This document shows positions 5,465-54,568 of a stretch of 64,000 bases of DNA, in pieces; the first letter of the stretch is position 1, and each line of letters opens with the position of its first letter. A model generated the notes under the pieces. That model searched no databases and was not told the DNA's origin. It was given only the letters and a program-made list of their open reading frames with translations. Location of the stretch: the NCBI GenBank assembly GCA_038065315.1, contig JBBTRF010000001.1, positions 392,425-456,424 of the forward strand. The letters are read 5' to 3'. This DNA is from Patescibacteria group bacterium (lineage in GTDB: Bacteria > Patescibacteriota > Minisyncoccia > Phycocordibacterales > JBBTRF01). The translations under genes and the position numbers were made by a program.

Positions 5465-5821
5465 TTAAATCTTTTTTGTTCTTTTTACAGTCCTAATTCG
5501 GTGACAGTTAGCACAAACAAGCTCACATCTAGATATTTCGGTCTTTATTCTGTTCAAACTTGAGGTTTTCCGCTTAAAGTCTGCCAAATTAAAGCTTTTC
5601 TTCCCAACATGGTCAAATTCTAAAACCTGAGGGTATTCTCCTCCGCAGAAACCACAATCGATACAACTTCTCATTTTTTTATATTCACAAATATACTCGA
5701 GTATTTTCTGCTTCAACCTGTTTACATACGAAATGTGCTTTTTCTTATTTTTTGGATACCACACCTCTCTCATATATCTCTTGTGGTTTTGACGATGTTT
5801 TTCTGGATCACGATATGGCAT
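5465..5821 (-). CDS. Free-standing HNH endonuclease (homing-endonuclease-like), AT-rich
   Basis: About 117 aa starting MPYRDPEK; motifs CIDCG...EFDH...CANCH (HNH / zinc-finger nuclease). GC content drops sharply over 5440-5870 relative to flanks. Confidence 0.7.
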   Translation of the reverse strand: MPYRDPEKHRQNHKRYMREVWYPKNKKKHISYVNRLKQKILEYICEYKKMRSCIDCGFCGGEYPQVLEFDHVGKKSFNLADFKRKTSSLNRIKTEISRCELVCANCHRIRTVKRTKKI

Positions 5822-5921
5822 AGTCATCATATTATATATTATTTTTATGATGCCGTTAAGAAGAATGCTTTTGAAACGAAAAACAGGCGCCATTCCGAGC
5901 GTCTGTTTTTCGTTTTCCTTG

Positions 5922-6225
5922 TTGCGGGGCCGCGAATTGCACGCGGGCCTCAAGGTTATGCTTACCACTTCGGCTTTCGCCGCACCGACTTGGCTTCGTG
6001 GTCTGGACTATACCTTCTTCCGAAAGATACTCTTGTCTCGTTACGGAAGCCTGCCATCTAGTCTCTACACCTTCCGAGATTTTGCTCGGCTTGGCTCGGT
6101 ATTGCCACCCCTCCCCAAAGTTGAGAAGACGAGGTTTCACCGAATTTGACAAGTTATCAATACCGATTACTCGATAGTGAGCCCTAAAAATTGAGCCTTG
6201 CGAGTTACTGCTTCTCTACCCCGCG
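5922..6225 (-). tRNA. Initiator tRNA-fMet (anticodon CAU) interrupted by a ~233-nt group I intron between U33 and C34
   Basis: 5' exon CGCGGGGTAGAGAAGCAGTAACTCGCAAGGCT (6194-6225) plus 3' exon CATAACCTTGAGGCCCGCGTGCAATTCGCGGCCCCGCAA (5922-5960) give a cloverleaf with the C1:A72 mismatch typical of initiators, loop CTCATAA and a CCGCG/CGCGG T-stem. The intron (5961-6193) ends in G after an exon U and contains GGCAATACCGAGCCAAGC...GAAGGTGTAGAGACTAGATGG, near-identical to the Azoarcus tRNA-Ile group I intron (IC3) core. Confidence 0.7.
5961..6193 (-). other. Group I intron (IC3, Azoarcus-like) in tRNA-fMet
   Basis: Core block similarity to the Azoarcus intron (GGCAA.GCCGAGCCAAGC ... GGUGUAGAGACUAGA); 5' splice after U, 3' terminal G. 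Confidence 0.65.
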
Positions 6226-27405: not shown

Positions 27406-27492
27406 GGAAAGATGGATGAGTGGTTTAAATCAACGGTTTACTAAACCGTCGTCCCGTTACACGGACCGTGGGTTCGAATCCCACTCTTTCCG
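27406..27492 (+). tRNA. Class II (Ser-type) tRNA with apparent anticodon ACU
   Basis: GGAAAGA acceptor, D GAT/ATC, anticodon arm ACGGT-TTACTAA-ACCGT (perfect 5-bp stem forces loop TTACTAA), long variable arm, T-arm GTGGG-TTCGAAT-CCCAC. Confidence 0.5.
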
Positions 27493-27557
27493 CAGTAAGA
27501 AAAATGTATCGGGAGACCCGAGTGCCCAAAAAGGTCATTTTAAGCTAAAATTAAAGC

Positions 27558-37097: not shown

Positions 37098-37110
37098 AAT
37101 GATGCTGATG

Positions 37111-37183
37111 TGCGCCCGGAGGGAGTCGAACCCCCGGCCAGGTGTGTATAAGACACCTGCTCTACCAACTGAGCTACGGGCGC
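37111..37183 (-). tRNA. tRNA-Ile (anticodon UAU)
   Basis: Reverse complement GCGCCCGTAGCTCAGTTGGTAGAGCAGGTGTCTTATACACACCTGGCCGGGGGTTCGACTCCCTCCGGGCGCA; anticodon arm GGTGT-CTTATAC-ACACC gives TAT. Confidence 0.8.
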
Positions 37184-41339: not shown

Positions 41340-41795
41340 ATGATGATACCCATGGCGCTATTGCAGCACAAAAAAATCGGTCTCGACTACGAAATCCTCG
41401 AGAAGTACGAGGCTGGCGTTGAGCTACTCGGCACCGAGGTGAAGTCGGTCCGCGCCAAGCTCGGCAAGCTCGAGGGCGGCTACGTCACCATCCGCGGCGG
41501 CGAGGCTTTCCTCATGAACACCGAGATCCCGCCTTTCCAGCCCCTCAACGCGCCAAAAGACTTCGACCAGGCTCGTATTCGCAAGCTCCTGTTGAGTAAA
41601 AAAGAGCTTCAGGAATTGGCCAATCTCGAGGCGAAACAAGGTTTGACAATAGTACCTGTTTCGGTGTATAATAAGGGCCGAAAGTTGAAGGTGGAGATCG
41701 CAGTCGTAAAAGGCAAAAAGAAGCACGACAAGCGCGAATCCATGAAAAAGAAGCAGTCCGCGCGCGACGTCGCTCGCGAGTACCGAGATCGTTGA
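41340..41795 (+). CDS. smpB: SsrA-binding protein SmpB
   Basis: 151 aa; KKIGLDYEILEKYEAGVELLGTEVKSVRA...GGYVTIRGGEAFL...KKHD typical of SmpB; immediately upstream of tmRNA. Confidence 0.9.
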   Translation: MMIPMALLQHKKIGLDYEILEKYEAGVELLGTEVKSVRAKLGKLEGGYVTIRGGEAFLMNTEIPPFQPLNAPKDFDQARIRKLLLSKKELQELANLEAKQGLTIVPVSVYNKGRKLKVEIAVVKGKKKHDKRESMKKKQSARDVAREYRDR

Positions 41796-41822: not shown

Positions 41823-42209
41823 GGGGATGCCAGGCATCGACGGAAGAATATCTCTTGAATGTGCGAAGGAGAGCTTCAGTAACTCTTAAAAAGGCTGAAA
41901 ATTCTAAGTGCAAAACTTGGATCTGTAAAGTCTCCGTACTTCGGTGCGGCTGACCTTGCATTCGCTTACGCTAAAGCCTAAGCGACGCCAGCCGGATGGT
42001 TTCCACACCGTTCGGTCCTGACGCTATATTTGTGGAATAGGATCAGCGGAGTCCCGCCGCCGATTCGAGATCATGGGAATAGTGCGTACCGCTTTTCGGT
42101 CGTTTCATAACGGCACGCGCGAATTGCCGCAAGGCATAGAAGCGCCCTACCCTTCGTAGACCCATTCACTAGACTCTTCTGCACGGGGGTTCAATTCCTC
42201 CCATCTCCA
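41823..42209 (+). ncRNA. ssrA: tmRNA (ssrA)
   Basis: 5' GGGGATGCCAGGCATCGACGG... and 3' tRNA-like end GGGGGTTCAATTCCTCCCATCTCCA (T-arm plus acceptor pairing with the 5' GGGGATG); located directly after smpB. Confidence 0.8.
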
Positions 42210-43770
42210 CATCCATAGAGTTTGAAGCCACAAAGTCCTCAAAAAGCCTTACGGCTGCTGGTATTTTATCGGTTCGATAACCGGTGTTTTTGTCGTAATG
42301 CAATTTCTCATTGAAAATGAAGAAGAACGTCTCCTGTTTTTCTCGCGCATCCAAGGAAGTCCATATCTTGTATGGGCTTTTAAGCAGTGTGGATACTTTA
42401 TCCAGAGCGGTTCGATAAGGAATTGTCAGATCGATCTCGCCTACTGAACCCGACCCGAGATTCTCAAGCTCCGTTGAAAGAATTTCAATTTGATCCTCAT
42501 AAGCTCTCTTAGCGGCTTCTACACCTGTCTTCGACGAAGAAATTGCTAGTTTTCCAATGTCCTCCTCTATCGACTTTTTCTTGGTGTTTCGCTCAGCTTC
42601 CTCTTTCTTGAGTTTACCGACTTCGTCTTGCCACACCCCATCAAACACAACCTTTAATAATGCGTCGACTTCTTTCTTAAGAACGCACTTTTTAAGAAGA
42701 ATCTTGAAACGATCTTCAACATCCTTCTTTTTTAGAGATTTTCTGTAAAAGGAACAATCTTTCTTTTGACAAAGATAGTAAGGATGCTTCTTGTTTCGCC
42801 CTTTCGACCAACCGGAAGTAAGATGACTTCCGCATTCATTACACAAAAGAAGACCCCTTAGCGGAAAGTCGTCTCTTACGTCCAATCGCACGCGAATACC
42901 CGAATCTTCCTTGCGCAATCTTTTCTGAATTAGTTCAAAGGTCTCGATTGATATTATCCCCTCGTGTTTACCGAGCCTTCTTTCAACTCCCCGCTTCGGA
43001 TATTCAATATAGCCTGCATAAAACGGATCCTTCATTACAGCACTGATACGGCTTATATACTTATCAGGATTACTACCTTTCCAAAATCCCTTTTTAAGCA
43101 AAAACCGACATACATCGACCCTACTCCTCAAGAAGCCTTTAGCGAACTGCTCGCGTGCCGGCTTGAGCAGTTCCAAGCCGTCTTTTGTGGGCAGAGACAA
43201 CATTCCGTGCGCATGATCCTTAGTCATTTTATAGCCCCTCTTGCTACCATAGGCCCAGTAACCCAATTCCAATCTCGCTCGTTGCTTTTGAGTAACCTGC
43301 CTGTGATTTTGGTGCCTCTCAAGTTCTGCTTGTCCCGCCATAATTAATTCTGAGAAGCGTCCCTCTGGACTTTCATCAAAATTATAGTTCAAACACCTTA
43401 ATACGATATTACGTACCTTGAAAGCAGCTCTTAATTTCAAATGAAATTCCACGTCGCGAGCAAAACGCTTGAGATCGTCGAACACAACAACATATCTCTT
43501 GTCGGGATTTGCGTCTATGTAAGCAAGGAGCTTTCGCATAGCCGGACGATTCATAAAATCACCTCCGCCTGTATAACTATCGGGAAAAGTCTTTGTGTGT
43601 GGAATACCTAATGTCGATAGTTCTTTTACACATCTCCCCTCCTGACTTACTAAGCCTGTCCCCTCAATCTCCTGTCTCTTACTTGAGACGCGTGCGTAAA
43701 CGAGACCCTCCCTGTCCTCGTAAACACTTTTTTGTTGTTGTATCTTTTTGTTTTTTAACATTTTTTTCAA
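42169..43770 (-). CDS. Large serine recombinase (integrase)
   Basis: 533 aa; N-terminal resolvase catalytic domain (YARVSSKRQ ... VVFDDLKRFARD), recombinase domain and Cys-rich zinc ribbon (CNECGSHL...YYLC); C-terminus overlaps the tmRNA 3' end. Confidence 0.85.
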   Translation of the reverse strand: MKKMLKNKKIQQQKSVYEDREGLVYARVSSKRQEIEGTGLVSQEGRCVKELSTLGIPHTKTFPDSYTGGGDFMNRPAMRKLLAYIDANPDKRYVVVFDDLKRFARDVEFHLKLRAAFKVRNIVLRCLNYNFDESPEGRFSELIMAGQAELERHQNHRQVTQKQRARLELGYWAYGSKRGYKMTKDHAHGMLSLPTKDGLELLKPAREQFAKGFLRSRVDVCRFLLKKGFWKGSNPDKYISRISAVMKDPFYAGYIEYPKRGVERRLGKHEGIISIETFELIQKRLRKEDSGIRVRLDVRDDFPLRGLLLCNECGSHLTSGWSKGRNKKHPYYLCQKKDCSFYRKSLKKKDVEDRFKILLKKCVLKKEVDALLKVVFDGVWQDEVGKLKKEEAERNTKKKSIEEDIGKLAISSSKTGVEAAKRAYEDQIEILSTELENLGSGSVGEIDLTIPYRTALDKVSTLLKSPYKIWTSLDAREKQETFFFIFNEKLHYDKNTGYRTDKIPAAVRLFEDFVASNSMDVEMGGIEPPCRRV

Positions 43771-43993
43771 TCTCCTCTCGCACGGCCTTTCGACAAAGCA
43801 TCTCGAGATACCGCAACCTCTTCAATATCTTGTCGTCAGAAATTACCCAATCACCAAGAAGGTCGCGGTAGACATGGGTGGAGACCGTAGTCTCCTTATT
43901 ATCATAGCACCTGTTTTCTTGGCTCATAAAAATAACCTGAGGGTTAGGCCCTTAGGTTATTCGATGACCGATTTAGATTGACTTAAGACGAAT

Positions 43994-44731
43994 CTAAGAC
44001 AAAAGCTTTTTAGGAATTCTCACTGACTGTCTAGTGGTAATAAATGCCCAATCTAGGCTATATTTGAGCAACTTTATCTTAATTTGATAAATCGCGTTGT
44101 AACACCTCTTTTCATCTTGTTTTCCACCACCAAGTCGCTCAGCGATCTCTGAGAAAAACCATTCTTCACCAACCTCTTTCGTATCCTCAAAGATAACCCT
44201 TAGAACATGATACTGATTGGAAAACTTGCGAATTTTAATTGTGTTCCCTTTTATATACAAGAGTGATTTTTCTGGGTCGAAAAAGATGCCATTTGGAGCG
44301 ATTCCAGTATCGCAAGAGTCGCGCTCCACGATCTTCTTCCTCACCGACCTAAGAACCTTTAGCTTTGCTCTGGTCTCCTTGTTGATATTAAAAAGCTCCT
44401 TATCCCCCTCCAAGTTAGGGAAATTTGGTTCTTCGTAGGTGAGTGGGAATGAGCAAACCGAATCCGTCTCGGAAAATATCTCTCTTTCATCCTCAAAAGC
44501 CTCCTTGTCCCTATCAAGAAATTTTCTAACAGCTGCCTTCCATCGAAGATACATTTTCCTAACATCGTGGTAATAGAAGGGGTTGTTCTTCCCATGAGAC
44601 ATGGCAACACCTTGGTTGGTATGGGCAGTTATTGTAATCCCCCGTTCGAACAACTTACCAATCCCCTCTGACAGGTCAGCATCTAAAATACTGGGGATGA
44701 GATCTGGTAATTTTAGCCTTCGTGGGTCCAT
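43994..44731 (-). CDS. Hypothetical protein (island cargo)
   Basis: 245-aa AT-rich ORF, no recognisable domain. Confidence 0.4.
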   Translation of the reverse strand: MDPRRLKLPDLIPSILDADLSEGIGKLFERGITITAHTNQGVAMSHGKNNPFYYHDVRKMYLRWKAAVRKFLDRDKEAFEDEREIFSETDSVCSFPLTYEEPNFPNLEGDKELFNINKETRAKLKVLRSVRKKIVERDSCDTGIAPNGIFFDPEKSLLYIKGNTIKIRKFSNQYHVLRVIFEDTKEVGEEWFFSEIAERLGGGKQDEKRCYNAIYQIKIKLLKYSLDWAFITTRQSVRIPKKLLS

Positions 44732-44972
44732 CAGTAGAAAGAAAGTGATTATATGCTAGTATATAAGCACAATTGAATTGTTTTGAGTAGCCTAAACCAC
44801 ACAAGCAATTGTTGGCATGGCGAAAAGCCCAGTAACGACCAAAAAACCCATCATATGGGGTTGTCGTTACTGGCCGTACAGGGAAACTTGTATGGAGGGC
44901 GTAAGCTCTCACCCATGTGGTGGGCTTTTTGCTACCCAACACTTGGTTAGAAGTTAGACCAGTAACATCTCA

Positions 44973-45305
44973 ATGACCAAAACCGGACTCCGCTATCATT
45001 TATTTTTGGCAGTACACCTAATTGGTATAGTGCTTATTATTTCGGGAATAGCTTTCATATTTCTGAACATGCTCATCATTACGAGTGATGGCGTAAGTCA
45101 TTTTGACTTACTCGGACTACCTATACCCACACCGCCGATTTGGTTTTCCTACATACCCTACTATGGATCCTTACTGGGCCAATTTTACGAAATGTTCTCG
45201 TGGCACGGCCTTGTTGAAATTGTCATAACAGCAACCTTAATTTTCCTGGGTGTTGGCCTAAACAATCTAAAGGTAACTGGGATCGCTCACCGACCGAAAA
45301 AATGA
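44973..45305 (+). CDS. Small integral membrane protein (3 TM; island cargo)
   Basis: 110 aa, three hydrophobic helices; 4-nt overlap with the next ORF. Confidence 0.4.
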   Translation: MTKTGLRYHLFLAVHLIGIVLIISGIAFIFLNMLIITSDGVSHFDLLGLPIPTPPIWFSYIPYYGSLLGQFYEMFSWHGLVEIVITATLIFLGVGLNNLKVTGIAHRPKK

Positions 45306-46087
45306 ATCTTAAAACAACATCAAAAGAGAAACTTCAAGAGCTACTCATTGCTGCCATGAGAGAGGAATTAGAGGACCAAAAAGCTGCCAAAAAAGATCGG
45401 TTTATAAGGGCGGCCAATTTAGCAATGGCGGAGGCCGATGAAAGAAATGCTGAATATGAACGCAACCTAAGAAAGGTCCTGAGTGAGGCAAAAGATAACA
45501 TGCCACGAATGAGTAACAACGGGGCTACAGTGGAGATAAAATTCATTGATTATCCCAATGGGTATATTCGGTATTCCTTATCGTTCCTCCACAGCAAGAA
45601 ATCCTTTCTAAATCCAGAATCACTTACCGAAAACCCCGTCACTTTCTATGAAGAAGGCAAAGAGTCTTTGATCCCCTTCTTTGAAAGCTTCTTGGAAGAC
45701 GAAGTGCAGTCGAGATACGAACCGCTAGAGCCTGATGTAAGGATTGAGGGCAAGAAATTACCGCACCAGTTTTTTAGGTTTACCTTCCTTATCAACGAAA
45801 GTAAGATCAAGCAACCTGAAGAAAATGATGTCGCCTACGGTGGCTTTATTCCCGCCCTGACACTAGAGGTTTCAAGAGTAGAGCTTTGGAAGTTTGTCTC
45901 GGAACTCCGCAAAGATTACGACGACTGGGCACTCAGAAATAACGGTCCGAAGATAAAGCGACAAAGCATAGTGAAATACGTGAAGTTAAGAAAGGTTGCT
46001 GAGGGTGTCATCGTGGCTCTAATCTGGATCCTCATCATCTTCATCTGGAATCAATTCGAACAACTTTGGAGAATATTGCTCTCGTAG
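45302..46087 (+). CDS. Hypothetical protein with C-terminal TM anchor (island cargo)
   Basis: 261 aa; coiled-coil N-terminus, C-terminal VIVALIWILIIFIW helix; co-transcribed with the preceding membrane ORF. Confidence 0.4.
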   Translation: MNLKTTSKEKLQELLIAAMREELEDQKAAKKDRFIRAANLAMAEADERNAEYERNLRKVLSEAKDNMPRMSNNGATVEIKFIDYPNGYIRYSLSFLHSKKSFLNPESLTENPVTFYEEGKESLIPFFESFLEDEVQSRYEPLEPDVRIEGKKLPHQFFRFTFLINESKIKQPEENDVAYGGFIPALTLEVSRVELWKFVSELRKDYDDWALRNNGPKIKRQSIVKYVKLRKVAEGVIVALIWILIIFIWNQFEQLWRILLS

Positions 46088-46158
46088 TTTAACGGAAAAA
46101 CAAGGCCGTTCTAACGCCAAGATGCGGGTTCAATTCCTGCCGAGAGTACTTGGAATTA
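46088..46158 (+). tRNA. tRNA-like element / degenerate tRNA (possible att-site remnant), anticodon region reads UCU if folded
   Basis: GCTCTCG acceptor, D arm GTTT/AAAC, T-arm GCGGG-TTCAATT-CCTGC and 3' CGAGAGT pair correctly, but the anticodon stem has only 3 bp. T-loop core GGGTTCAATTCCT is identical to that of the tmRNA 3' end. Confidence 0.35.
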
Positions 46159-46545
46159 AACAGACTGATTCTTTAGCCTAGCAAGGGTTTCATTGAGATT
46201 CCTGATTGTCTCATCATGGCGGCTATCTCGTTCCGTATCACCTCCATTAAGGAGTTGGATATTTTTCGTGAGCTTATCCAAAGCATCTACAAGATCGCGA
46301 TATTTAGCCTTCCTGACGGTCTTAGTCATATGTTTGATGGCAAGAGTACGTTGTATCTCCAACTCCTCAACAAGGGGCCTTATTGCCTCTTTGTAGGCCT
46401 TTGTACCGGTGACAATCTTCGGTGTTTTAGACACAGACTCAGAATATCCGTGCTTTTTGAGGATTTTGCCCATATTCAATTTCCGACCTTTTCCGAGGTT
46501 TTCCATCACTTCTCCTGCTACGCTTTTGGCGTTTATGCTGGTCAT
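46156..46545 (-). CDS. Hypothetical protein (island cargo)
   Basis: 129-aa AT-rich ORF. Confidence 0.35.
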   Translation of the reverse strand: MTSINAKSVAGEVMENLGKGRKLNMGKILKKHGYSESVSKTPKIVTGTKAYKEAIRPLVEELEIQRTLAIKHMTKTVRKAKYRDLVDALDKLTKNIQLLNGGDTERDSRHDETIRNLNETLARLKNQSV

Positions 46546-46697
46546 CTTAAAATTAATTACTTTGATAAAACGGACTTCAAGCCAACCTCACGAGAAACAT
46601 CAATTAGTGCAATTATAACACTGGAAGTGCCTGATTTTCAGCCACGCCTCCCCGCATTGCAATAACTACCCGAAATCTGTAGGCTGGGTCTAATGTT

Positions 46698-47471
46698 ATG
46701 AAGAAAGGGATCTGCAAAATGTGTCTTAAAAACAAGGACCTCCTCAAGGAATCGCATATTATTCCTAAATCTTTGTATAAGCTCCTAGCCGGGAAAAATG
46801 GCCTTTTGGTCTTCCTGAACTCCAAGCGACCTGAGCTTAAATACAACAGTGCTTACGATAAATATATTTTATGCGCAGACTGTGATGGTGGAATCATTGG
46901 GAAACTGGATGACTACGGGGCAAAATTCTTACACGCTAAATTTCCCAACAAGAGTACACCGCAGACAAGGTATGTAGACGGAGAAAAATGCCTCGTTTTC
47001 GAAGACGACCCAAACTATGACTACACCAAATTTAAGCTGTTCTTACTTTCGATTCTGTGGCGCAGCAGCGTATCTTCCCACCCCTTCTTTAGGGCAGTGA
47101 AACTATCGCCTGACACTAAAGAAATCTTAAGACTAATGATCAAGGATGGCGATGCGGGCAAACCGGACGAATACCCCTGCTTTATACACTTACCGCCAGT
47201 AACGGAAAGCTCTGAGGGACATCATGGCTTTAACATAGCCCACTTGCCTACGATGTCACCAGTCTGCGTCGAAACAGACGGAATAAAAATCTGCAAATTT
47301 ATCATTACGGGTTGCCACTACTATTTTATAATCGACAGGCCCAAAAACATCAGAGTGATACCGAGCATGGAAAAAGATAGGCTTACTATTAGATTCAGCA
47401 CAAGGATGGAGCAAGACATGCTGATCCAACAAATATTCGAAATAATCCGTGATCAAAAAGATACTCAGTAG
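46698..47471 (+). CDS. HNH-like nuclease motif protein (island cargo)
   Basis: N-terminus CKMCLKNKDLLKESHIIPKS...LCADCDG fits the CxxC...H-(I/V)IP...CxxC HNH pattern; remainder unassigned. Confidence 0.45.
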   Translation: MKKGICKMCLKNKDLLKESHIIPKSLYKLLAGKNGLLVFLNSKRPELKYNSAYDKYILCADCDGGIIGKLDDYGAKFLHAKFPNKSTPQTRYVDGEKCLVFEDDPNYDYTKFKLFLLSILWRSSVSSHPFFRAVKLSPDTKEILRLMIKDGDAGKPDEYPCFIHLPPVTESSEGHHGFNIAHLPTMSPVCVETDGIKICKFIITGCHYYFIIDRPKNIRVIPSMEKDRLTIRFSTRMEQDMLIQQIFEIIRDQKDTQ

Positions 47472-48136
47472 TAAAGACCATAGCGCTTGATCAGAGCGAC
47501 AAAATCCTTGTAAGTACTAGAGTGGCGAATGGCTTTTTCTTCGTTAAAATGGCTTCCTACAGATTGTGAGATGTCTTTTGCACCAACCGTCTTATTTAGG
47601 TCAACAAAAGAATTAAATTTCTCTTTACAGTGACAACTCGATGTAGTACTAGACAACAGTCTATTCAGCTCACTATCATGTTGATCTTTAAAATCTGGAA
47701 AGTTCGATTCTAATCCAGCAAAATACCAACTTTCAATCTCCACCTCAACTGGACAAATAAGGACCTCCTTGAATGATACGGAGGAACTGGCCACGGCCTC
47801 CTCAATTAACTTTTTCCTGACGCCACTCTGACTCTGGTCAATATCAAAAAGGACAACTAGATAGAGTTCAAAATCATTACCAAAAAGATAGGTGTGATTC
47901 TTGATGAAAAGAGAAGCAATTTGATATGTATCGGGCTTCTTTAATCTTTCCTTTCCAGCAACCTTACTACCAAGCTGGGGCGGGAAAGGAAAAAACCAAA
48001 AGACTTCATCCTTACTGTATATCGAAGAATTGCCATCCTTAAGGAGCTTTGATTCAAAAGACCTTCTTTCCAACAATCTCGGCAAAAAGTATCTTTCACT
48101 ATCCCCCTCTCCGATTAGCAAGCAGACCTTTTTCAT
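47465..48136 (-). CDS. Toprim-like (DUF4276/RloB-like) protein, partner of the AAA ATPase
   Basis: Start MKKVCLLIGEGDSERYF (conserved Glu), later LVVLFDIDQ (DxD) - Toprim catalytic signature; ATG overlaps the ATPase stop as ATGA (48133-48136). Confidence 0.55.
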   Translation of the reverse strand: MKKVCLLIGEGDSERYFLPRLLERRSFESKLLKDGNSSIYSKDEVFWFFPFPPQLGSKVAGKERLKKPDTYQIASLFIKNHTYLFGNDFELYLVVLFDIDQSQSGVRKKLIEEAVASSSVSFKEVLICPVEVEIESWYFAGLESNFPDFKDQHDSELNRLLSSTTSSCHCKEKFNSFVDLNKTVGAKDISQSVGSHFNEEKAIRHSSTYKDFVALIKRYGLYY

Positions 48137-49509
48137 ACTTCTTTTACTGGAAAAATTCCTTCGATTGTCCCCTGGCAAAATAATTCCGAATTTTTCTTAT
48201 CGGAAATGTACTTCTGCTCCTTCGGTGACAAATTTTCGATGATTGTCTTGTAATTATAAATATTACATCTATTTGCACCCTCTACCACAACGTCTCCGGC
48301 AATAGAAGCCGCGTCCTTTATATAGAATATCTCCTCGGTAGAAAAACCATCCAAAAAATAAGGGGAGTGTGTTGTTATGAAGATTTGAACCCTTCTCGAC
48401 AATGCTCTTAAAACCTCAATAAACTCTATGAGAATAGTCGGATGAACGATCGAATCAGTCTCGTCCAGGAGAAGGACGTGAGGTAATTGATAGCTCCTTT
48501 CCAAGGATCTCAGATTAATCCAGTTAAGTAAGGTAATAAAAAACACCAAAACGGATGTTCCGTTGGAGATTGTCCATATACCATCAGGACCGTTTGGCGA
48601 CGAGACAGACAAAGACCCCTTTGAATTAATCGACACTCCTCGAACTATTCCCTTGGTGTAAAGGTTCAGATCATTAGCAAATTTTTCTTTTATTATTTTA
48701 TTTTTTTCTATATCGCTTATCAAGAAAATAAACTCAGAGTTTTCAAGGCTGGTTTTGTTAGAAGGAACACCTCCATCCTTGAGTCGTCTCAAAGCTTCCT
48801 GATAAATCTGCTCATTCCCTTTGTCCGTTACATATTTATGAAGTGACAAAGCGGTCGTTATGTTACCCATATCGACACTAAGAAACTTCGGTCTAAACTG
48901 GGAAACAACGCTGTTTTGTAAATGTTCAAATATGGCAAAATAATTGTCGCCCTGCGGGTTTTTTATCGGATTCGACTGGATGATATTAGTATCACCTATG
49001 TTTTCTGTCTTCGAAAAATTCTTTTCGTAAACAAGGGTATCCTTCATCGTTACTGCACCTTTTTCAAAAAGAGAGTTATCTTTTGCAAAGGCTGACCATT
49101 TTATCTCACGATCCCTATTTACGTATTGCTTACCAGTAAAAAAGAGTTTGTGTAAGGTCGAGAAGCTATTTTTATCTAAAACTTTTTCGAATATCATCGC
49201 CTCGGTCTCGACACAAAAAAAATCAGTCTGTTCGTCCACCTGATTTCCGCCAACAAAACAAGTTCTTGCACTCTTATTCTCTATTGAGGTCTTCAACGAA
49301 GTAGTTCGAAGCCCTTGACCGATAGTAACATTATTGCCGCCAAACTCTTGAGTGTAGTCAGTTTTAATTTTCAGTGCAGAACTAATTGCCAACAGAAAAT
49401 TGGATTTACCACTTGAATTTCTGCCCGTAAAAACATTAAGATCGCCGAAGGAGATATCGGCCTTACTAATATTCCTAAAGTTCTTAATCTCAATATTTCT
49501 AATTTTCAT
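48133..49509 (-). CDS. AAA family ATPase (AAA_15/AAA_21, OLD/ABC-like) of a two-gene defense-type module
   Basis: 458 aa; Walker A VFTGRNSSGKSNFLLAI at N-terminus, Walker B/D-loop LLLDETDSIVHP and H-loop ITTHSPYF at C-terminus, long coiled middle. Confidence 0.75.
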   Translation of the reverse strand: MKIRNIEIKNFRNISKADISFGDLNVFTGRNSSGKSNFLLAISSALKIKTDYTQEFGGNNVTIGQGLRTTSLKTSIENKSARTCFVGGNQVDEQTDFFCVETEAMIFEKVLDKNSFSTLHKLFFTGKQYVNRDREIKWSAFAKDNSLFEKGAVTMKDTLVYEKNFSKTENIGDTNIIQSNPIKNPQGDNYFAIFEHLQNSVVSQFRPKFLSVDMGNITTALSLHKYVTDKGNEQIYQEALRRLKDGGVPSNKTSLENSEFIFLISDIEKNKIIKEKFANDLNLYTKGIVRGVSINSKGSLSVSSPNGPDGIWTISNGTSVLVFFITLLNWINLRSLERSYQLPHVLLLDETDSIVHPTILIEFIEVLRALSRRVQIFITTHSPYFLDGFSTEEIFYIKDAASIAGDVVVEGANRCNIYNYKTIIENLSPKEQKYISDKKNSELFCQGTIEGIFPVKEV

Positions 49510-49808
49510 GACGATAAGTCTATCACAAAATGAGGCGAAATGCGATAATATTTAGTATTTCAAACCCTAAATTTACGGAAATAGCCTTATTTATCAACGA
49601 ATATCAATTCTGAAATACTCCCACAGAGGTATTTCGAGTGGGTCACTATTCAAACAAAGGATGCAATACGTCACTTGTGTCCCCTCTCCGACTATAAGAT
49701 CAAGCATTCTCAAGGGCATTTTGCAGTGTTAGGCTTGAATTGTAATAGCTCCAAAACCGAGAAAGGTAGGATTTTACTCGGTTCAATGTCTTTCGTGACA
49801 TCTCCACA

Positions 49809-49851
49809 ACAAAAGAAAAATGCCAACACATTGTTGGCATTTTTCTTTTGT
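49809..49851. terminator. Bidirectional hairpin terminator (20-bp perfect stem, 3-nt loop) at island edge
   Basis: acaaaagaaaaatgccaaca-cat-tgttggcatttttcttttgt. Confidence 0.6.
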
Positions 49852-50066
49852 CTATCGGAAGAGATGGGAGGAATTGAAAGCCGGAGCGGATGTGAGGCCA
49901 GCAGGCCGAACCGCGAGGCGGGGTCGCAGAAATTTCCGAGCGTCGGCGAGGAAATTATCAGTGACCAATTCCTCATCGAACATTGACATAGCAGTTTAAT
50001 CATGCTAGCGTAATTTCAGCTCCAAAACGTTGGATCGCTTCCAACATCACACACATCAGTCAAACT

Positions 50067-50441
50067 ATGCAACTCACAACCGAACTCCTCACTCCGTTCA
50101 TCGGCGGCCAACTGGAAGTCCAGAACACTAACGAACGTTACATCTACCGTGGTGAAATCAAAAAACTAACGGTGGTGCACAACGAACTCGTCGTGGAATT
50201 CAACTGGATGGCCAAAGGCGAGGGCTTCCCGCCGATCCCAAAGAAATGGGTTCTCGACGAACAAAGAACCTACGCGCTCAGTCTCGACATCAGCTCGGTG
50301 AGTGACATCGGTCCGAGTGAAGGCGAAGTCGGCGGAGGCAGTCGCCTCTGCATTCAGTGCTCTATGATCGGCGAAACAGTAATTCTCTTCCCCGCCGACG
50401 GAAGCAAGCTCGAACGCACCCAGGTCGAAGGGCTGGTGTAA
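50067..50441 (+). CDS. Hypothetical protein
   Basis: 124-aa ORF with host-like GC; terminator-like hairpin plus T-tract at about 50466-50500. Confidence 0.4.
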   Translation: MQLTTELLTPFIGGQLEVQNTNERYIYRGEIKKLTVVHNELVVEFNWMAKGEGFPPIPKKWVLDEQRTYALSLDISSVSDIGPSEGEVGGGSRLCIQCSMIGETVILFPADGSKLERTQVEGLV

Positions 50442-50593
50442 CCAAAGCCCGAACGAAACAGTCTCCATGCCCCCGACCTCACCGTCGGCGGGTTTTTTAT
50501 TTTCCACATCAATTGACTCTCTCCCATTTAAAATGTACCTTGAATACAGCGGCTCGAAACGCGAGCCTCACCCTCCACAAAAAGCTCTTTCTT

Positions 50594-51424: not shown

Positions 51425-51703
51425 TCAACCCTTCGTCCCGGACTGCTTGATGAACTGGAGCGTCTCGCCGGTCTTGAGGACGCGTTCGTCGTCCACCGTT
51501 TCATCGCCGATCACGGCGAGCATGGTTGGGGCGATATTGAGCACGTCGCTGAGGCGATTGCGCACATTCCCCACCGTCAGGGTCTCGCCATCGCCGAGGT
51601 TGATGCTCTGGCTGTTGGCACCGCACTGGATCTGCACCGCAGGGGCGCTCGGGATCACAGGTGGTTCTGCTGTTGCAGTTGCTGTTGTCGAGTCGTCTGT
51701 CAT
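51425..51703 (-). CDS. ThiS/MoaD-like beta-grasp (ubiquitin-like) protein
   Basis: About 92 aa from MTDDSTTA; C-terminal half ...GETLTVGNVRNRLSDVLNIAPTMLAVIGDETVDDERVLKTGETLQFIKQSGTKG parallels ThiS/MoaD (..G.TV..LL..L......VAV.N.E.V......L.DGDEV.I...V.GG) but ends SGTKG rather than GG; ATG overlaps E1 stop (ATGA). Confidence 0.55.
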   Translation of the reverse strand: MTDDSTTATATAEPPVIPSAPAVQIQCGANSQSINLGDGETLTVGNVRNRLSDVLNIAPTMLAVIGDETVDDERVLKTGETLQFIKQSGTKG

Positions 51704-52410
51704 GTTGCCTTTCTTTGGTTGCCCTCCGGCTTGCGCAGGAAGGCTTGGGTGTTGCCGGTTCTCACATCGAAGAACTGCTCGGAGTATACCAACTTTTGCT
51801 TTCCTGCCAAGACCGCGGAGACCATCCAAAATGCGGAGAGCATATGAACGGCCGCGGCCAGGTTGGTAAAGATCAGTTGAGGCACTCCGCTCGCAGCGAG
51901 CTCTTCGCAGCTCATTTCCGCCGGATTCCGATCCTGCGGCTGCGCGATCTCGGGGTGGAGATGCGTGATCGGCGGCGTCAGATCCTTTCCTCCGTTACGG
52001 AGATAGATCTGAACATTTCCGTCGGTCAGCTCATTTCCACCCGAGATCAGTGTGACCTCCTCCAATTCCCGACAGCGGTCGGACACCAGTTTGCGGGTGG
52101 CATGGTTATCCACCCCCAGGAACACGGTGTCGCCGTTGTTGATCATGAAGAAGATATTTTCTTCGGTCACGTATTCCGATTTTGCTTCGATAGCGAGGCC
52201 GGGGAAATCCCGCCTCATTCTCGCGGCCGTGACCTCTGCTTTGTTTCCGACATCCAAGAATTCTTGGCGGTCGGCGTTTCTGGCTTCGTAAGAGTCGCCG
52301 TCAATGACGACGACCTGGATGTTGCGGTCAGCGAGCGAATCGAGATACCGGCACAAGGGTGATATCAGGTTGCTACCAATACCGCCGAGTCCGATCACTT
52401 TCATGGTCAT
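51700..52410 (-). CDS. E1-like adenylyltransferase (ThiF/MoeB family, minimal)
   Basis: MTMKVIGLGGIGSNL (Rossmann GxGxxG) and VVIDGDSYEARNADRQ (D.D.V..SNLnRQ-like) motifs; about 236 aa; ATGA overlap with JAB gene stop. Confidence 0.75.
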   Translation of the reverse strand: MTMKVIGLGGIGSNLISPLCRYLDSLADRNIQVVVIDGDSYEARNADRQEFLDVGNKAEVTAARMRRDFPGLAIEAKSEYVTEENIFFMINNGDTVFLGVDNHATRKLVSDRCRELEEVTLISGGNELTDGNVQIYLRNGGKDLTPPITHLHPEIAQPQDRNPAEMSCEELAASGVPQLIFTNLAAAVHMLSAFWMVSAVLAGKQKLVYSEQFFDVRTGNTQAFLRKPEGNQRKAT

Positions 52411-53081
52411 AGGAATCCCTTTCTGTGTTTGACGAGGTCGAGCCACTCTTTGGGAACCTCCCAACTATCAATGTCCGGCCAAGCGATCCGATACAAACCT
52501 TCTCGTTCTGGGGTAACACCCTCGAACCAGCCGGTCTCTACGGGAAACCTGTTTCCATTGATCGCTAATTCCGCCGACAGAGAAAACTTTGGATACCGGT
52601 CCACGTTACCAAGGGTAATATGGACCCCATCCGCAGTGTCTTCGTCAGTGTGGTCAGTTTCAGAATGGAAGGCGTGAAGCCGGCCGTGCGAATGAATCGT
52701 TCCGATACAAAGCGCTCCAGGGAGCCGTCCGGAGGCGTCGTAGTCAGCCGTCACTAGGGTCACTTGTTGTTCAGGGACCGTGAGCTGGTAGCCTGTTTTT
52801 TCTCCGTGATGCAGGAGCAGACAAACCTCGCTTTCGGAGACATCGTAGACGGCTTTCGCCAGCTTTAGAGCTTTCGCAATGATCTCCCCAGGCAGCTTCG
52901 GCAAGAGTAATTTTGCTGAAGGGTATTGCACCCTGAGCGCGCACGCTTCGGCCACAGGCACCGTTGCATCTACCCACCCCATCTTCTTACTAACGAAGAG
53001 GCCATTTCTGGCCACGACGTAGTGGGTCGTCTCAGGCGCCGCTGCGGCACCTTTCACTTTCTTGAGATGGATCGGTATCAT
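52407..53081 (-). CDS. JAB/MPN (JAMM) metalloprotease, deubiquitinase-like
   Basis: Start MIPIHLKKVKG; JAMM motif HSHGRLHAFHSETD (H-x-H-x7-S-x2-D) with upstream Glu (ESEVCLLLHHGE); ATGA overlap with upstream gene stop. Confidence 0.75.
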   Translation of the reverse strand: MIPIHLKKVKGAAAAPETTHYVVARNGLFVSKKMGWVDATVPVAEACALRVQYPSAKLLLPKLPGEIIAKALKLAKAVYDVSESEVCLLLHHGEKTGYQLTVPEQQVTLVTADYDASGRLPGALCIGTIHSHGRLHAFHSETDHTDEDTADGVHITLGNVDRYPKFSLSAELAINGNRFPVETGWFEGVTPEREGLYRIAWPDIDSWEVPKEWLDLVKHRKGFL

Positions 53082-54568
53082 TTTGCCTCCTCTGGCTTGA
53101 GGGTTGCGACGAAAGCTTCGTGAGCGGCCGCTATCGACCTCTCCGCATCTGCTTTCATCGAAACCATTGTCTGTTGCACTGCCGCTTCGAGAGCTTTTTG
53201 CAAAGCCTCGTCCGATAACACTTCGTCGATCTGGTCGCCGAGCTGGGTTTTTGCAAAGCCGCACAATTCGCCGACAGCTCGCTTGAATTCCGTGGCAATC
53301 TGAGCCAGGAGTGCCGGTTCAACTTGCCAGGTAGGCACGAGCTTGAAGCAAGCTTCTTTCATCTCATTCTCGACCCTTGCTGCCAATTGAGCAACAGCGG
53401 TATCGAGCGCTGACATGACATCCTTGCCAGTCCGTTCCCTTCTCTGTCCAGCCGTATCAGCAGCGAAATCAGCGCTGATCTTTTTCAGCATGCTCGCGAC
53501 GGTTTGTTTGGCCGGAATCCAAGGGTAGGACAAGCCGAATAGTGAGTCCTTTCTCGAAGCGCCCGCCCAAGCATCGATACTAAGCTGACGATGTGCTTCC
53601 GTGACTAGCTCGGTTTCGATGAATCTGCCGCCCCAAAAACTGGCGATCGATTCTTCCGCCATCACGGCCAAGGATTCCTTAGCCGCCGACGGCGCGAAAC
53701 AGACCTTGAAGTCTCCAAATGTGTTCGGAAGAGCCGGACAGAACAGTTCGTCGTTCAGATCTCGCAATGGAGCCTTCCGAAACAGCACGTATGCCCCATC
53801 GGACTTGCGCCCGCGCAACACGATGAAGAACACGACGTAAGGCAAAGCCAACTGAAACATGTTTGACCGGTCTCCGCCTTGATACATAATCTTCAGTGTG
53901 CGTTTTTGTGGCGGCTGTTCGATGACGAATGTCGTCATCTTGCCTTTCCTAACGACGAAACGCGTGCCCGTAGGCAGCGCAAGCGAATTCACGCCATTAT
54001 CAGCTGAATCCGACGGATCGTCCTGGACAGCCTCTTGCCGAATTCGCAAGACGAGCTCGACAAGGTGCTTTTTTACGGCAACAGCAAAGATCTGCGATGC
54101 TTGCTTGCCGAGCTCCTCCAAGAGCTTCTGACGGAAACCATTCCGATCGGCTTTTACCATTCCGGAAAGGTGCTGCTCATCGAATTTCCGCATGAGTCTT
54201 TCTGCTTCCGTATTTACTTTAGCTTGTGCTTGGCCGATCGGTTTTTCGGCATCGGTTTTGAGTCCCCGGCCTGCTAATATGCAGACGTTTTTAGGGGCTT
54301 GTTTCAATTCGCGCCCGAATGCTTCAAGGGCCGTTCGAATAGGAGCCTTGATCGCATCGGAAAACGAGATCGAGCCGACTTGCCGGAATCCGAACACAGG
54401 CAAGATGCCCATGAAGCGGCCCGGCTTCACTTCTAGGACCAGCTTTTTCAGCATCGGCCCTTGTTTCTGATCTGCAGTGCACACAAGGAAACCCTCCTTC
54501 AGCGACTGCAGACCCTGGCCGAGCGACTGCTCAAACCAATTCCGAATCCGCGTGAGGATACTGAGCAT
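53078..54568 (-). CDS. Large uncharacterised protein with candidate E2 (UBC)-like core, first gene of the E2?-JAB-E1-Ubl operon
   Basis: 496 aa; region ...LALPYVVFFIVL...YVLFRKAPLRDLNDELFCPALPNTFGDFKVCFAPS has the E2 spacing (H/L)PN-x7-C with a central Gly (HPN-like LPN then Cys 8 residues later); helical N- and C-terminal extensions; no other domain recognised. Confidence 0.4.
   Translation of the reverse strand: MLSILTRIRNWFEQSLGQGLQSLKEGFLVCTADQKQGPMLKKLVLEVKPGRFMGILPVFGFRQVGSISFSDAIKAPIRTALEAFGRELKQAPKNVCILAGRGLKTDAEKPIGQAQAKVNTEAERLMRKFDEQHLSGMVKADRNGFRQKLLEELGKQASQIFAVAVKKHLVELVLRIRQEAVQDDPSDSADNGVNSLALPTGTRFVVRKGKMTTFVIEQPPQKRTLKIMYQGGDRSNMFQLALPYVVFFIVLRGRKSDGAYVLFRKAPLRDLNDELFCPALPNTFGDFKVCFAPSAAKESLAVMAEESIASFWGGRFIETELVTEAHRQLSIDAWAGASRKDSLFGLSYPWIPAKQTVASMLKKISADFAADTAGQRRERTGKDVMSALDTAVAQLAARVENEMKEACFKLVPTWQVEPALLAQIATEFKRAVGELCGFAKTQLGDQIDEVLSDEALQKALEAAVQQTMVSMKADAERSIAAAHEAFVATLKPEEAK

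Follow-up and report, generated by a model that had tools for sequence, protein, structure and literature searches.

Judged by profile matches, the catalogued system closest to the gene pair described here is the PADLOC candidate HEC-01, which is reported to share the metal-binding site of BpOLD and whose single tested representative gave no protection against any phage tried (Payne et al., bioRxiv 10.1101/2024.01.29.577857). In MADS, Mad4, a homologue of DUF4276, is paired with the Mad3 ATPase, and DUF4276 is placed among the Toprim proteins, with the catalytic Glu and the DxD motif both preserved (PMC12065111). The genomes of Patescibacteria have yielded few defence systems, and only a single phage of these bacteria has been described (PMC12366544). 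In the present work, we have analysed a stretch of 64,000 nucleotides of Patescibacteria DNA (hereafter the window) that carries, on its minus strand, a two-gene module consisting of an ABC ATPase and a predicted Toprim protein. An initial annotation of the window had likened this module to the OLD, PARIS and AbiL systems; the split arrangement of ATPase and Toprim protein was borne out by our analyses, but the place of nearest relative passed from PARIS or AbiL to HEC-01. The sequence comparisons described below place the pair, as a divergent representative, in a class of candidate anti-phage modules that has already been catalogued. Such modules are expected on mobile islands and the finding is therefore confirmatory rather than surprising, but the candidate system is clean and seemingly intact, the integrative island that bears it is readily recognised, and the finding adds a small, well-delimited subfamily, mostly from Patescibacteria, to the DUF4276-type class of ATPase-Toprim modules.

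The upstream gene of the pair encodes the ATPase, a protein of 458 aa (48133..49509, minus strand, from the ORF listing) that is identical to MEK7645139.1 from a 'Patescibacteria group bacterium' MAG. The downstream gene (47465..48136, minus strand; NCBI MEK7645138.1, annotated as 'hypothetical protein') encodes the Toprim-fold partner. The length of the ATPase agrees with the initial annotation, but that of the partner is 223 aa and not 224, the latter being the number of codons with the stop included. The two ORFs overlap in an ATGA stop/start (48133..48136, minus strand, read from the sequence and recognised already in the initial annotation), in which the ATG of the partner occupies positions 48136-48134 and the TGA of the ATPase positions 48135-48133, within ...GAAGTATGAAAAAGG.... 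The pair with an overlapping stop and start is seen again in each of the related loci (4 or 8 nt in L001, L005, L007, and L009), and the ATGA overlap is indicative of translational coupling of the partner to the ATPase. The ORF listing also gives an upstream TTG start for the partner (237 aa); all of the homologues of the partner align from the ATG, with M1 invariant, and the ATG start is therefore supported over the TTG. Upstream of the ATPase lies a non-coding stretch (49510..49600, minus strand), presumed to be the promoter region, which contains one weak sigma-70-like site (TTGATA-16-TAAATT, 49597-49570). Promoter-like sites in 49510-49600 showed no excess over shuffled sequence, and this site is therefore no evidence of function.

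The ATPase belongs to the ABC ATPase superfamily (SMC/Rad50/OLD-type), and the profile check proposed in the initial annotation placed it above the gathering cut-offs of both AAA_15 (55.1 vs. 32.1 bits) and AAA_21 (54.8 vs. 27 bits). Its Walker A motif (GRNSSGKS, residues 29-36), signature-like motif (SNGTS, 315-319), Walker B motif (LLLDE, 346-350) and H-loop (THSP, 380-383) are invariant in 23 ATPase homologues, and a variable insert, both beta-rich and helical, occupies approximately residues 59-286. The N-terminal Walker A and the placement of Walker B and H-loop after a long insert are thus as first described, but the latter two motifs (346-383 of 458) are followed by about 75 residues and do not lie at the extreme C-terminus. 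The predicted structure is that of an ABC head, to which SMC, Rad50 and the defence ATPases PtuA, AriA, OLD, and GajA are nearest. The SMC and Rad50 heads are the best structural matches, and the ATPase also gives weak N-terminal matches to the RecF, Rad50 and RecN models, which could indicate a housekeeping pair for DNA repair or chromosome maintenance (RecF/RecN/SbcCD/SMC type). We consider this reading highly improbable. The matches to the NCBIfam equivalogs for RecF (TIGR00611; 38 bits against a cut-off of 172, residues 3-49), RecN (19.2 bits against 407.85) and Rad50 (25.1 bits against 700) fall far short and are all confined to the N-terminal 80 residues or so, in the Walker A region, so that the RecF/RecN-like identity raised as a caution by the initial annotation did not materialise. 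A long coiled coil was sought in the ATPase and none was found, the variable insert standing in its place. Furthermore, the island around the pair is low in GC and encodes an integrase, and the partner family is rare and patchy, unlike a core gene.

The Glu...DxD Toprim signature that had been read from the partner is present, in LLIGEGDSE (residues 6-14) and LVVLFDIDQ (residues 93-101). Its conserved residues are E10 and E14 (GEGDSE), D98-x-D100, E135 (EIESW), and K171. In an alignment of the 44-member partner family, E10, D98, E135 and W137 are invariant (44/44), K171 is kept in 42 and E14 in 40 members, and D100 is kept in 38 with Glu in 3 more. By the position of their motifs, the acidic residues resemble the metal-binding residues of OLD-family nucleases, and, on the strength of the family alignment, they are assumed to be clustered in a single active site. 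A confident structure model of the partner is predicted to have a three-layer alpha/beta Toprim fold of the OLD type, and it matches PH0156 and the Toprim region of BpOLD, so the fold whose absence would have spoken against the initial reading was recovered. A Foldseek search of the PDB with this model returned generic alpha/beta matches only.

At the level of single profiles, no Pfam or PADLOC model is matched above threshold by the window partner. It has no match to DUF4276 (PF14103; gathering cut-off 30.2 bits) at E<=1, and its match to OLD-like_TOPRIM (PF20469) covers residues 6-26 only (15.0 bits against a gathering cut-off of 23.2, E 0.037). Among its relatives the DUF4276 affiliation becomes visible: 24 of the 44 members of the family match PF14103 at E<0.01, and the partner in locus L007 passes the DUF4276 gathering cut-off (33.6 vs. 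30.2 bits). The partner family aligns by hhalign with a set of shorter relatives (99.3%, E 7.9e-21); of the 21 sequences in this set, 8 match PF14103 (best 3e-20) and 5 match DUF3226. These results suggest that the partner is a diverged, putative metal-dependent nuclease of the DUF4276 family that is also allied with DUF3226. Two of the candidate families named for it at the outset, DUF4276 and DUF3226, are thus reached via relatives, whereas an affiliation with DUF4435 or, when checked, with RloB was not supported. The window partner is longer than proteins of the DUF4276 and DUF3226 (PF11536; PH0156, PDB 2p62) families (223 vs. about 170-190 aa) because of an insert after the first helix. 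An additional segment of some 40 residues (approximately 26-70), in which W47, P52, G61 and Y71 are conserved, sets the window subfamily apart from the shorter DUF4276 proteins, which lack it.

The likeness to HEC-01 lies in the arrangement of two adjacent, co-directional genes, a short-insert ABC ATPase followed by a small stand-alone Toprim protein, and in the best PADLOC matches of the two genes, which are HEC-01A and HEC-01B, respectively. The ATPase is matched by 125 PADLOC models, with HEC-01A foremost (PDLC04178, 9.6e-19; PDLC04175, 1.7e-18), where all PADLOC matches reported here are single-model E-values and not calls under PADLOC's own thresholds; the lead of HEC-01A over the mad3, AriA and PtuA models is only marginal. 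The HEC-01B match of the window partner is weak and partial (E 1.2e-3, residues 91-179 only, 40% of its length), and PDLC04202 is matched by 7 of 9 partner relatives (best HEC-01B E-value overall, 1.3e-6). The pair also differs from HEC-01 in that it is not embedded in a Hma system and is found mainly in Patescibacteria.

Other described systems were compared with the pair. The PADLOC mad3 model aligns with the ATPase from end to end (2.8e-17), but MADS was rejected on the MAD3 equivalog NF047739 (44.7 bits against a cut-off of 420), and neither a methyltransferase nor other mad genes are present in the island or adjacent to the pair. The AbiLi model likewise matches the ATPase (4.4e-16); the AbiLii model is matched by 4 of 9 partner relatives (best 7.4e-5) and not by the window partner itself. 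PARIS (AriA/AriB) resembles the pair in its two-gene layout, a split ABC ATPase and Toprim effector on mobile elements, and its AriA models match the ATPase (3.5e-17 and 6e-17); however, the partner lacks the DUF4435 (PF14491) Toprim domain that defines AriB. PARIS was rejected on this basis, and there is very little likelihood that the pair is a true PARIS, triggered by an anti-restriction protein and killing via tRNA cleavage. The OLD nucleases (P2 Old; class 2 BpOLD, 6nk8; TsOLD, 6p74) and GajA are single polypeptides. A single-chain OLD was rejected, the ATPase and Toprim parts being in separate ORFs and PF20469 below gathering, and the pair further differs from Gabija in having no GajB-like helicase partner. 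Menshen, a three-gene system, was also rejected.

The linkage between the two genes is strict: in each of the loci recovered, the ATPase gene immediately precedes that of the partner, and the sequence identities of the two proteins co-vary (r = 0.93). The partner family amounts to 74 cluster representatives in a set of 1.84 billion proteins, and the subfamily to which the window partner belongs comprises about 40 full-length representatives, mostly from Patescibacteria. A search for related loci, with a 9-sequence partner alignment, likewise found the pair mostly in Patescibacteria, with a patchy distribution, and a scan of metagenomes yielded at least 9 loci. No relatives of the partner were found in phage records, PLSDB plasmids or IMG/VR contigs, which leaves a phage or plasmid origin without support. 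The neighbourhoods of the pair are variable and rich in mobile-element or defence genes (viz. recombinases of the serine type, a tyrosine integrase, a pair made up of a methyltransferase and a PD-(D/E)xK protein, and tRNA genes). No third gene is conserved beside the pair, as neither the convergent 257-aa gene nor the other island genes recur, apart from a 110-aa membrane protein found also in L001 and L004 and serine recombinases found also in L020 and L024.

In the window, the pair is the cargo of a serine-recombinase island that is inserted beside ssrA. The left edge of this island is marked by the tmRNA (ssrA; 41823..42212, plus strand; Rfam RF00023, 88.6 bits, full length), for which ARAGORN gave no call, and SmpB (41340-41795) is immediately upstream of the tmRNA. 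A large serine recombinase, the integrase of the island (42169..43770, minus strand; Pfam Resolvase, Recombinase and Zn_ribbon_recom; PHROG 95 integrase, 1.7e-53), overlaps the 3' end of the tmRNA with its own 3' end. The GC profile delimits an island of 7.7 kb (42213..49880), with a GC content of 0.40-0.43 (42.2-49.9 kb) against 0.53 in both flanks. A second, directly repeated copy of the tmRNA 3' end was sought as the mark of the far island border, and only an 18-nt inverted copy (49861-49878) was found, close to a perfect 20-bp hairpin (49809-49851); an Rfam E-value scan of 49400-50500 gave nothing credible. The core of the initial reading, viz. a split ABC/OLD-type ATPase and a translationally coupled, Toprim-like partner as the cargo of an ssrA island, in an organism with a small genome, has survived every test that was run.

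The link of the pair to integrative elements could also mean that it serves the life cycle of the island, in replication, excision or transfer. The Toprim protein would then resemble a primase or topoisomerase, enzymes that also contain Toprim domains, and would not be a defence nuclease. This appears quite improbable to us, as the fold matches are to the Toprim regions of OLD-type nucleases and to PH0156 and not to DnaG or topoisomerases, the pair is present without an integrase within 6 kb in L007 and L009, and the rest of the island genes are not conserved with it.

The reading that we favour, and to which we attach a fair degree of confidence, is that of a self-contained two-gene operon on an ssrA-adjacent island, in which an ABC ATPase and a coupled DUF4276-family Toprim protein would act as an ATP-gated nuclease against phage or mobile DNA, a mechanism that is likely by analogy with related systems. 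According to this proposal, the ATPase and its partner would form a complex and the ATPase would sense an infection or foreign-DNA cue; its binding or hydrolysis of ATP would then activate the Toprim nuclease or set it free, and the cutting of nucleic acid by the latter would block the phage or a competing mobile element. The substrate could be DNA, which OLD nucleases cut in vitro, or tRNA, which is cut by PARIS. A PARIS-like sequester-and-release scheme offers a plausible working model for the pair, and an abortive-infection function may be extended to it from its relatives only.

It is much less probable, though the best placed of the remaining readings, that the pair is an addiction module of toxin-antitoxin type, in which a toxic Toprim protein restrained by the ATPase stabilises the island and has no dedicated anti-phage role. 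Its position as mobile-element cargo beside integrases, and the lack of phage protection by HEC-01, are consistent with such a module, and PARIS has been likened to a type II toxin-antitoxin system with AriA as the antitoxin (review, PMC13064643). Against it, the pairs of ABC ATPase and nuclease that have been tested (viz. PARIS, Gabija, Septu, and HEC-02 to HEC-04) defend against phage. Addiction and defence roles are compatible with each other.

The island in the window also carries LOOT, a structured RNA, which is present in two other, distantly related elements with the pair. A more speculative possibility, to which we give little credence, is that the favoured ATPase-Toprim module works together with LOOT as an RNA-regulated system, loosely similar to the retron-linked ATPase-nuclease effectors, or that the subfamily with the 40-residue segment, enriched in Patescibacteria, recognises a trigger peculiar to the epibiotic lifestyle. 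The distance and orientation of LOOT relative to the pair are variable, and it is always located 59-67 nt upstream of some other gene, which points to LOOT as a part of the island backbone and not a component of the pair.

The two minus-strand genes belong to the DUF4276-type (HEC-01-like) class of ABC ATPase and Toprim pairs, of which they are a diverged member enriched in Patescibacteria. The first (49509 to 48133; NCBI MEK7645139.1) encodes an ATPase of 458 aa, and the second (ATG at 48136, end at 47465; MEK7645138.1) a partner of 223 aa that is listed as a 'hypothetical protein'. Their positions in the initial annotation were confirmed by the ORF listing and, since the coding-strand junction reads GAAGTATGAAAAAGG, the partner ATG and the ATPase TGA overlap as ATGA, as had been claimed. 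The ORF listing extends the partner to an upstream TTG, whereas all six homologues compared begin their alignment at the ATG. The corrections to the initial observation are small only: the partner had been counted as 224 aa, and the H-loop had been placed at the extreme C-terminus of the ATPase, whereas ~75 residues come after it. The identical proteins in NCBI come from a Patescibacteria group MAG, and the same island is present in Hainich groundwater assemblies.

The ATPase contains a Walker A motif (GRNSSGKS, residues 29-36), a signature-like SNGTS (315-319), a Walker B motif (LLLDE, 346-350), and an H-loop (THSP, 380-383), and it exceeds the Pfam gathering scores for both AAA_15 and AAA_21, in agreement with the layout first proposed for it. 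Its structural comparisons are headed by the SMC head (20.0), followed by the Rad50 head (18.8), the ATPases of Retron Ec83 (18.7) and Retron-Eco7 (17.5), PtuA (8ee4; 17.3), AriA (13.4), TsOLD (13.3), and GajA (12.6); therefore, this protein is an ABC ATPase and not an AAA+ protein. A housekeeping RecF/RecN-like system had been named as the alternative, and RecF or RecN identity is ruled out on score, the matches to RecF, RecN, and Rad50 models covering the Walker A end only and lying far under the curated cut-offs. The region between the two half-sites (~59-286) begins beta-rich and continues helical; it contains no long coiled coil, and mean column identity is 0.43-0.54 in this insert vs. 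0.68-0.72 in the nucleotide-binding core.

The partner carries the segments LLIGEGDSE (residues 6-14) and LVVLFDIDQ (93-101). Its sequence alone is under threshold for every model searched, including OLD-like_TOPRIM (E 0.037, residues 6-26) and HEC-01B (E 1.2e-3, residues 91-179), it has no match in NCBIfam or PHROGs, and only 74 relatives were recovered when 1.84 billion representatives were searched with a profile. The suggested check against DUF4276 was positive at the level of the family: 24 of the 44 full-length members match this Pfam model, with one relative above its gathering score (33.6 vs. 30.2 bits). The family profile also aligns to a set of shorter DUF4276/DUF3226 proteins with an hhalign probability of 99.3% and matches PH0156 by sequence (E 0.0024). 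DUF4276 has been reported to be a Toprim member in which the catalytic Glu and DxD are kept, and to be the homologue of Mad4 (PMC12065111). Residues E10, D98, E135, and W137 are invariant in the 44 sequences, and E14 (40/44), D100 (38/44, plus three with Glu), and K171 (42/44) are close to invariant. The partner subfamily differs from its shorter relatives by an additional segment (~26-70) with conserved W47, P52, G61, and Y71. Both the ABC ATPase and the Toprim-type acidic motif set are intact.

In PADLOC, HEC-01A and HEC-01B give the best matches to the ATPase and partner genes, respectively. They define the candidate system HEC-01, an ABC ATPase together with a TOPRIM protein, in which the BpOLD metal-binding site is conserved according to its authors and for which defence was detected against none of the phages tested (bioRxiv 10.1101/2024.01.29.577857). 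PARIS is ruled out by its defining domain, the DUF4435 of AriB; MADS by the MAD3 equivalog score (44.7 vs. 420 bits) and the lack of an adjacent methyltransferase; and single-chain OLD and Gabija by the split of the ATPase and Toprim domains seen here. AbiL is a distant relative, its AbiLii model matching 4 of 9 partner relatives but not the window partner. The overall reading in the initial annotation is supported and can be narrowed to the DUF4276-type (HEC-01-like) class.

The pair is translationally coupled, strictly co-inherited, and carried on mobile islands. In every locus recovered by partner or ATPase look-up, the ATPase gene is immediately upstream of the partner gene; the stop/start overlap is 4 or 8 nt at all loci with gene calls; and identities to the window's two proteins drop in parallel (68/49% to 37/27%, r = 0.93). 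No conserved neighbour genes beyond the pair itself were found generally across the loci. Serine recombinases lie alongside it in related loci (L001-L004, L005/L020, and L024), and tRNA genes adjoin it in L001, L025, and L029. Carriers in the species-representative genome set belong to Saccharibacteria, Lloydbacteria, Magasanikiibacteriota, and Peribacteria, with two small 'Gammaproteobacteria' MAGs, and more remote ones are in archaea and Latescibacterota. Searches of GenBank phages, PLSDB plasmids, and IMG/VR contigs found no relative. By analogy with OLD, Gabija, and PARIS, the ATPase would sense an infection cue and regulate the Toprim nuclease, which would then cut either DNA or tRNA. Such a defence nuclease is, overall, the somewhat favoured explanation of this coupled, island-borne pair; that it is purely an island-addiction module appears unlikely, and other explanations carry small weights. 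For the putative defence nuclease, we lean slightly, and on weak grounds, towards DNA rather than tRNA as substrate, because AriB is a more distant structural match to the partner than the BpOLD nuclease region is. Finding the pair on an island is not surprising; what makes it noteworthy is the small number of defence systems known from Patescibacteria (PMC12366544), together with the fact that the DUF4276-type (HEC-01-like) class has a candidate function only.

The island adjoins the full-length tmRNA gene (41823-42212, + strand; Rfam 88.6 bits, missed by ARAGORN), to the left of which lies SmpB (41340-41795). The 3' end of a large serine recombinase gene (42169-43770; PHROG integrase, 1.7e-53) overlaps the tmRNA 3' end, and GC is 0.40-0.43 from the recombinase to ~49880 vs. 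0.53 on either side. No direct repeat of the tmRNA 3' end was found at the right border; this end (42190-42207) has a perfect 18-nt inverted copy (30 nt at 83%) at 49861-49878, the exact point where GC regains the host level, adjoined by a perfect 20-bp hairpin (49809-49851). The inverted copy may represent serine-integrase half-sites or an inversion relic. Besides several ORFs without family matches, the island contains a tRNA-Arg(UCU) gene (46078-46149, +) between two gene blocks, its start overlapping the end of a 261-aa ORF; this tRNA gene may be cargo or a second integration target. A 257-aa protein with a CxxC ... SHIIP ... CxxC pattern (46698-47471, +) has matches to two phage families of unknown function (phrog_19960, 3.4e-24; phrog_7075, 1.6e-17) and none in Pfam, NCBIfam, or PADLOC; its gene is convergent with the partner gene, the ends overlapping by 7 nt, and is not conserved beside the pair at other loci.

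A LOOT RNA (Rfam RF03000; 44789-44910, +; 85 bits) also lies inside the island and recurs in two other, distantly related pair-carrying elements (L001, 6324-6464; L003, 289-429; L034, 2161-2301; L005, 9389-9510, equal to L020, 8056-8177; all on the minus strand). In each element a gene in the same orientation follows it after 59-67 nt; this gene encodes a 110-aa membrane protein in the window, an 84-aa product in L001, and a methyltransferase in L005. In the window and L005, the LOOT RNA terminates in a hairpin with a U-tract. Because a large serine recombinase is common to all three elements, LOOT looks like a component of the island backbone and not part of the pair.

Just beyond the island, a co-directional cluster with host-like GC (51425-54568, -) encodes a protein of 496 aa without an assigned family, a protein with a JAB domain (PF14464, 25.3 bits), a ThiF/E1-like protein (1.3e-17) that also has a weak PADLOC E1-E2 match, and a 92-aa ORF with a terminal Gly. 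The arrangement is similar to operons for ubiquitin-like conjugation, of which some function in phage defence. Elsewhere in the window, ARAGORN reports unusual anticodons for tRNA-Ile(UAU) (37110-37183, -) and tRNA-Ser(ACU) (27406-27493, +), the latter being separated by 180 nt from a tRNA-Ser(GCU) absent from the Rfam results. A group I intron match (5983-6203, -; 51.9 bits vs. the Rfam gathering score of 50) adjoins a 167-aa ORF (5465-5968) and a tRNA-Met gene.
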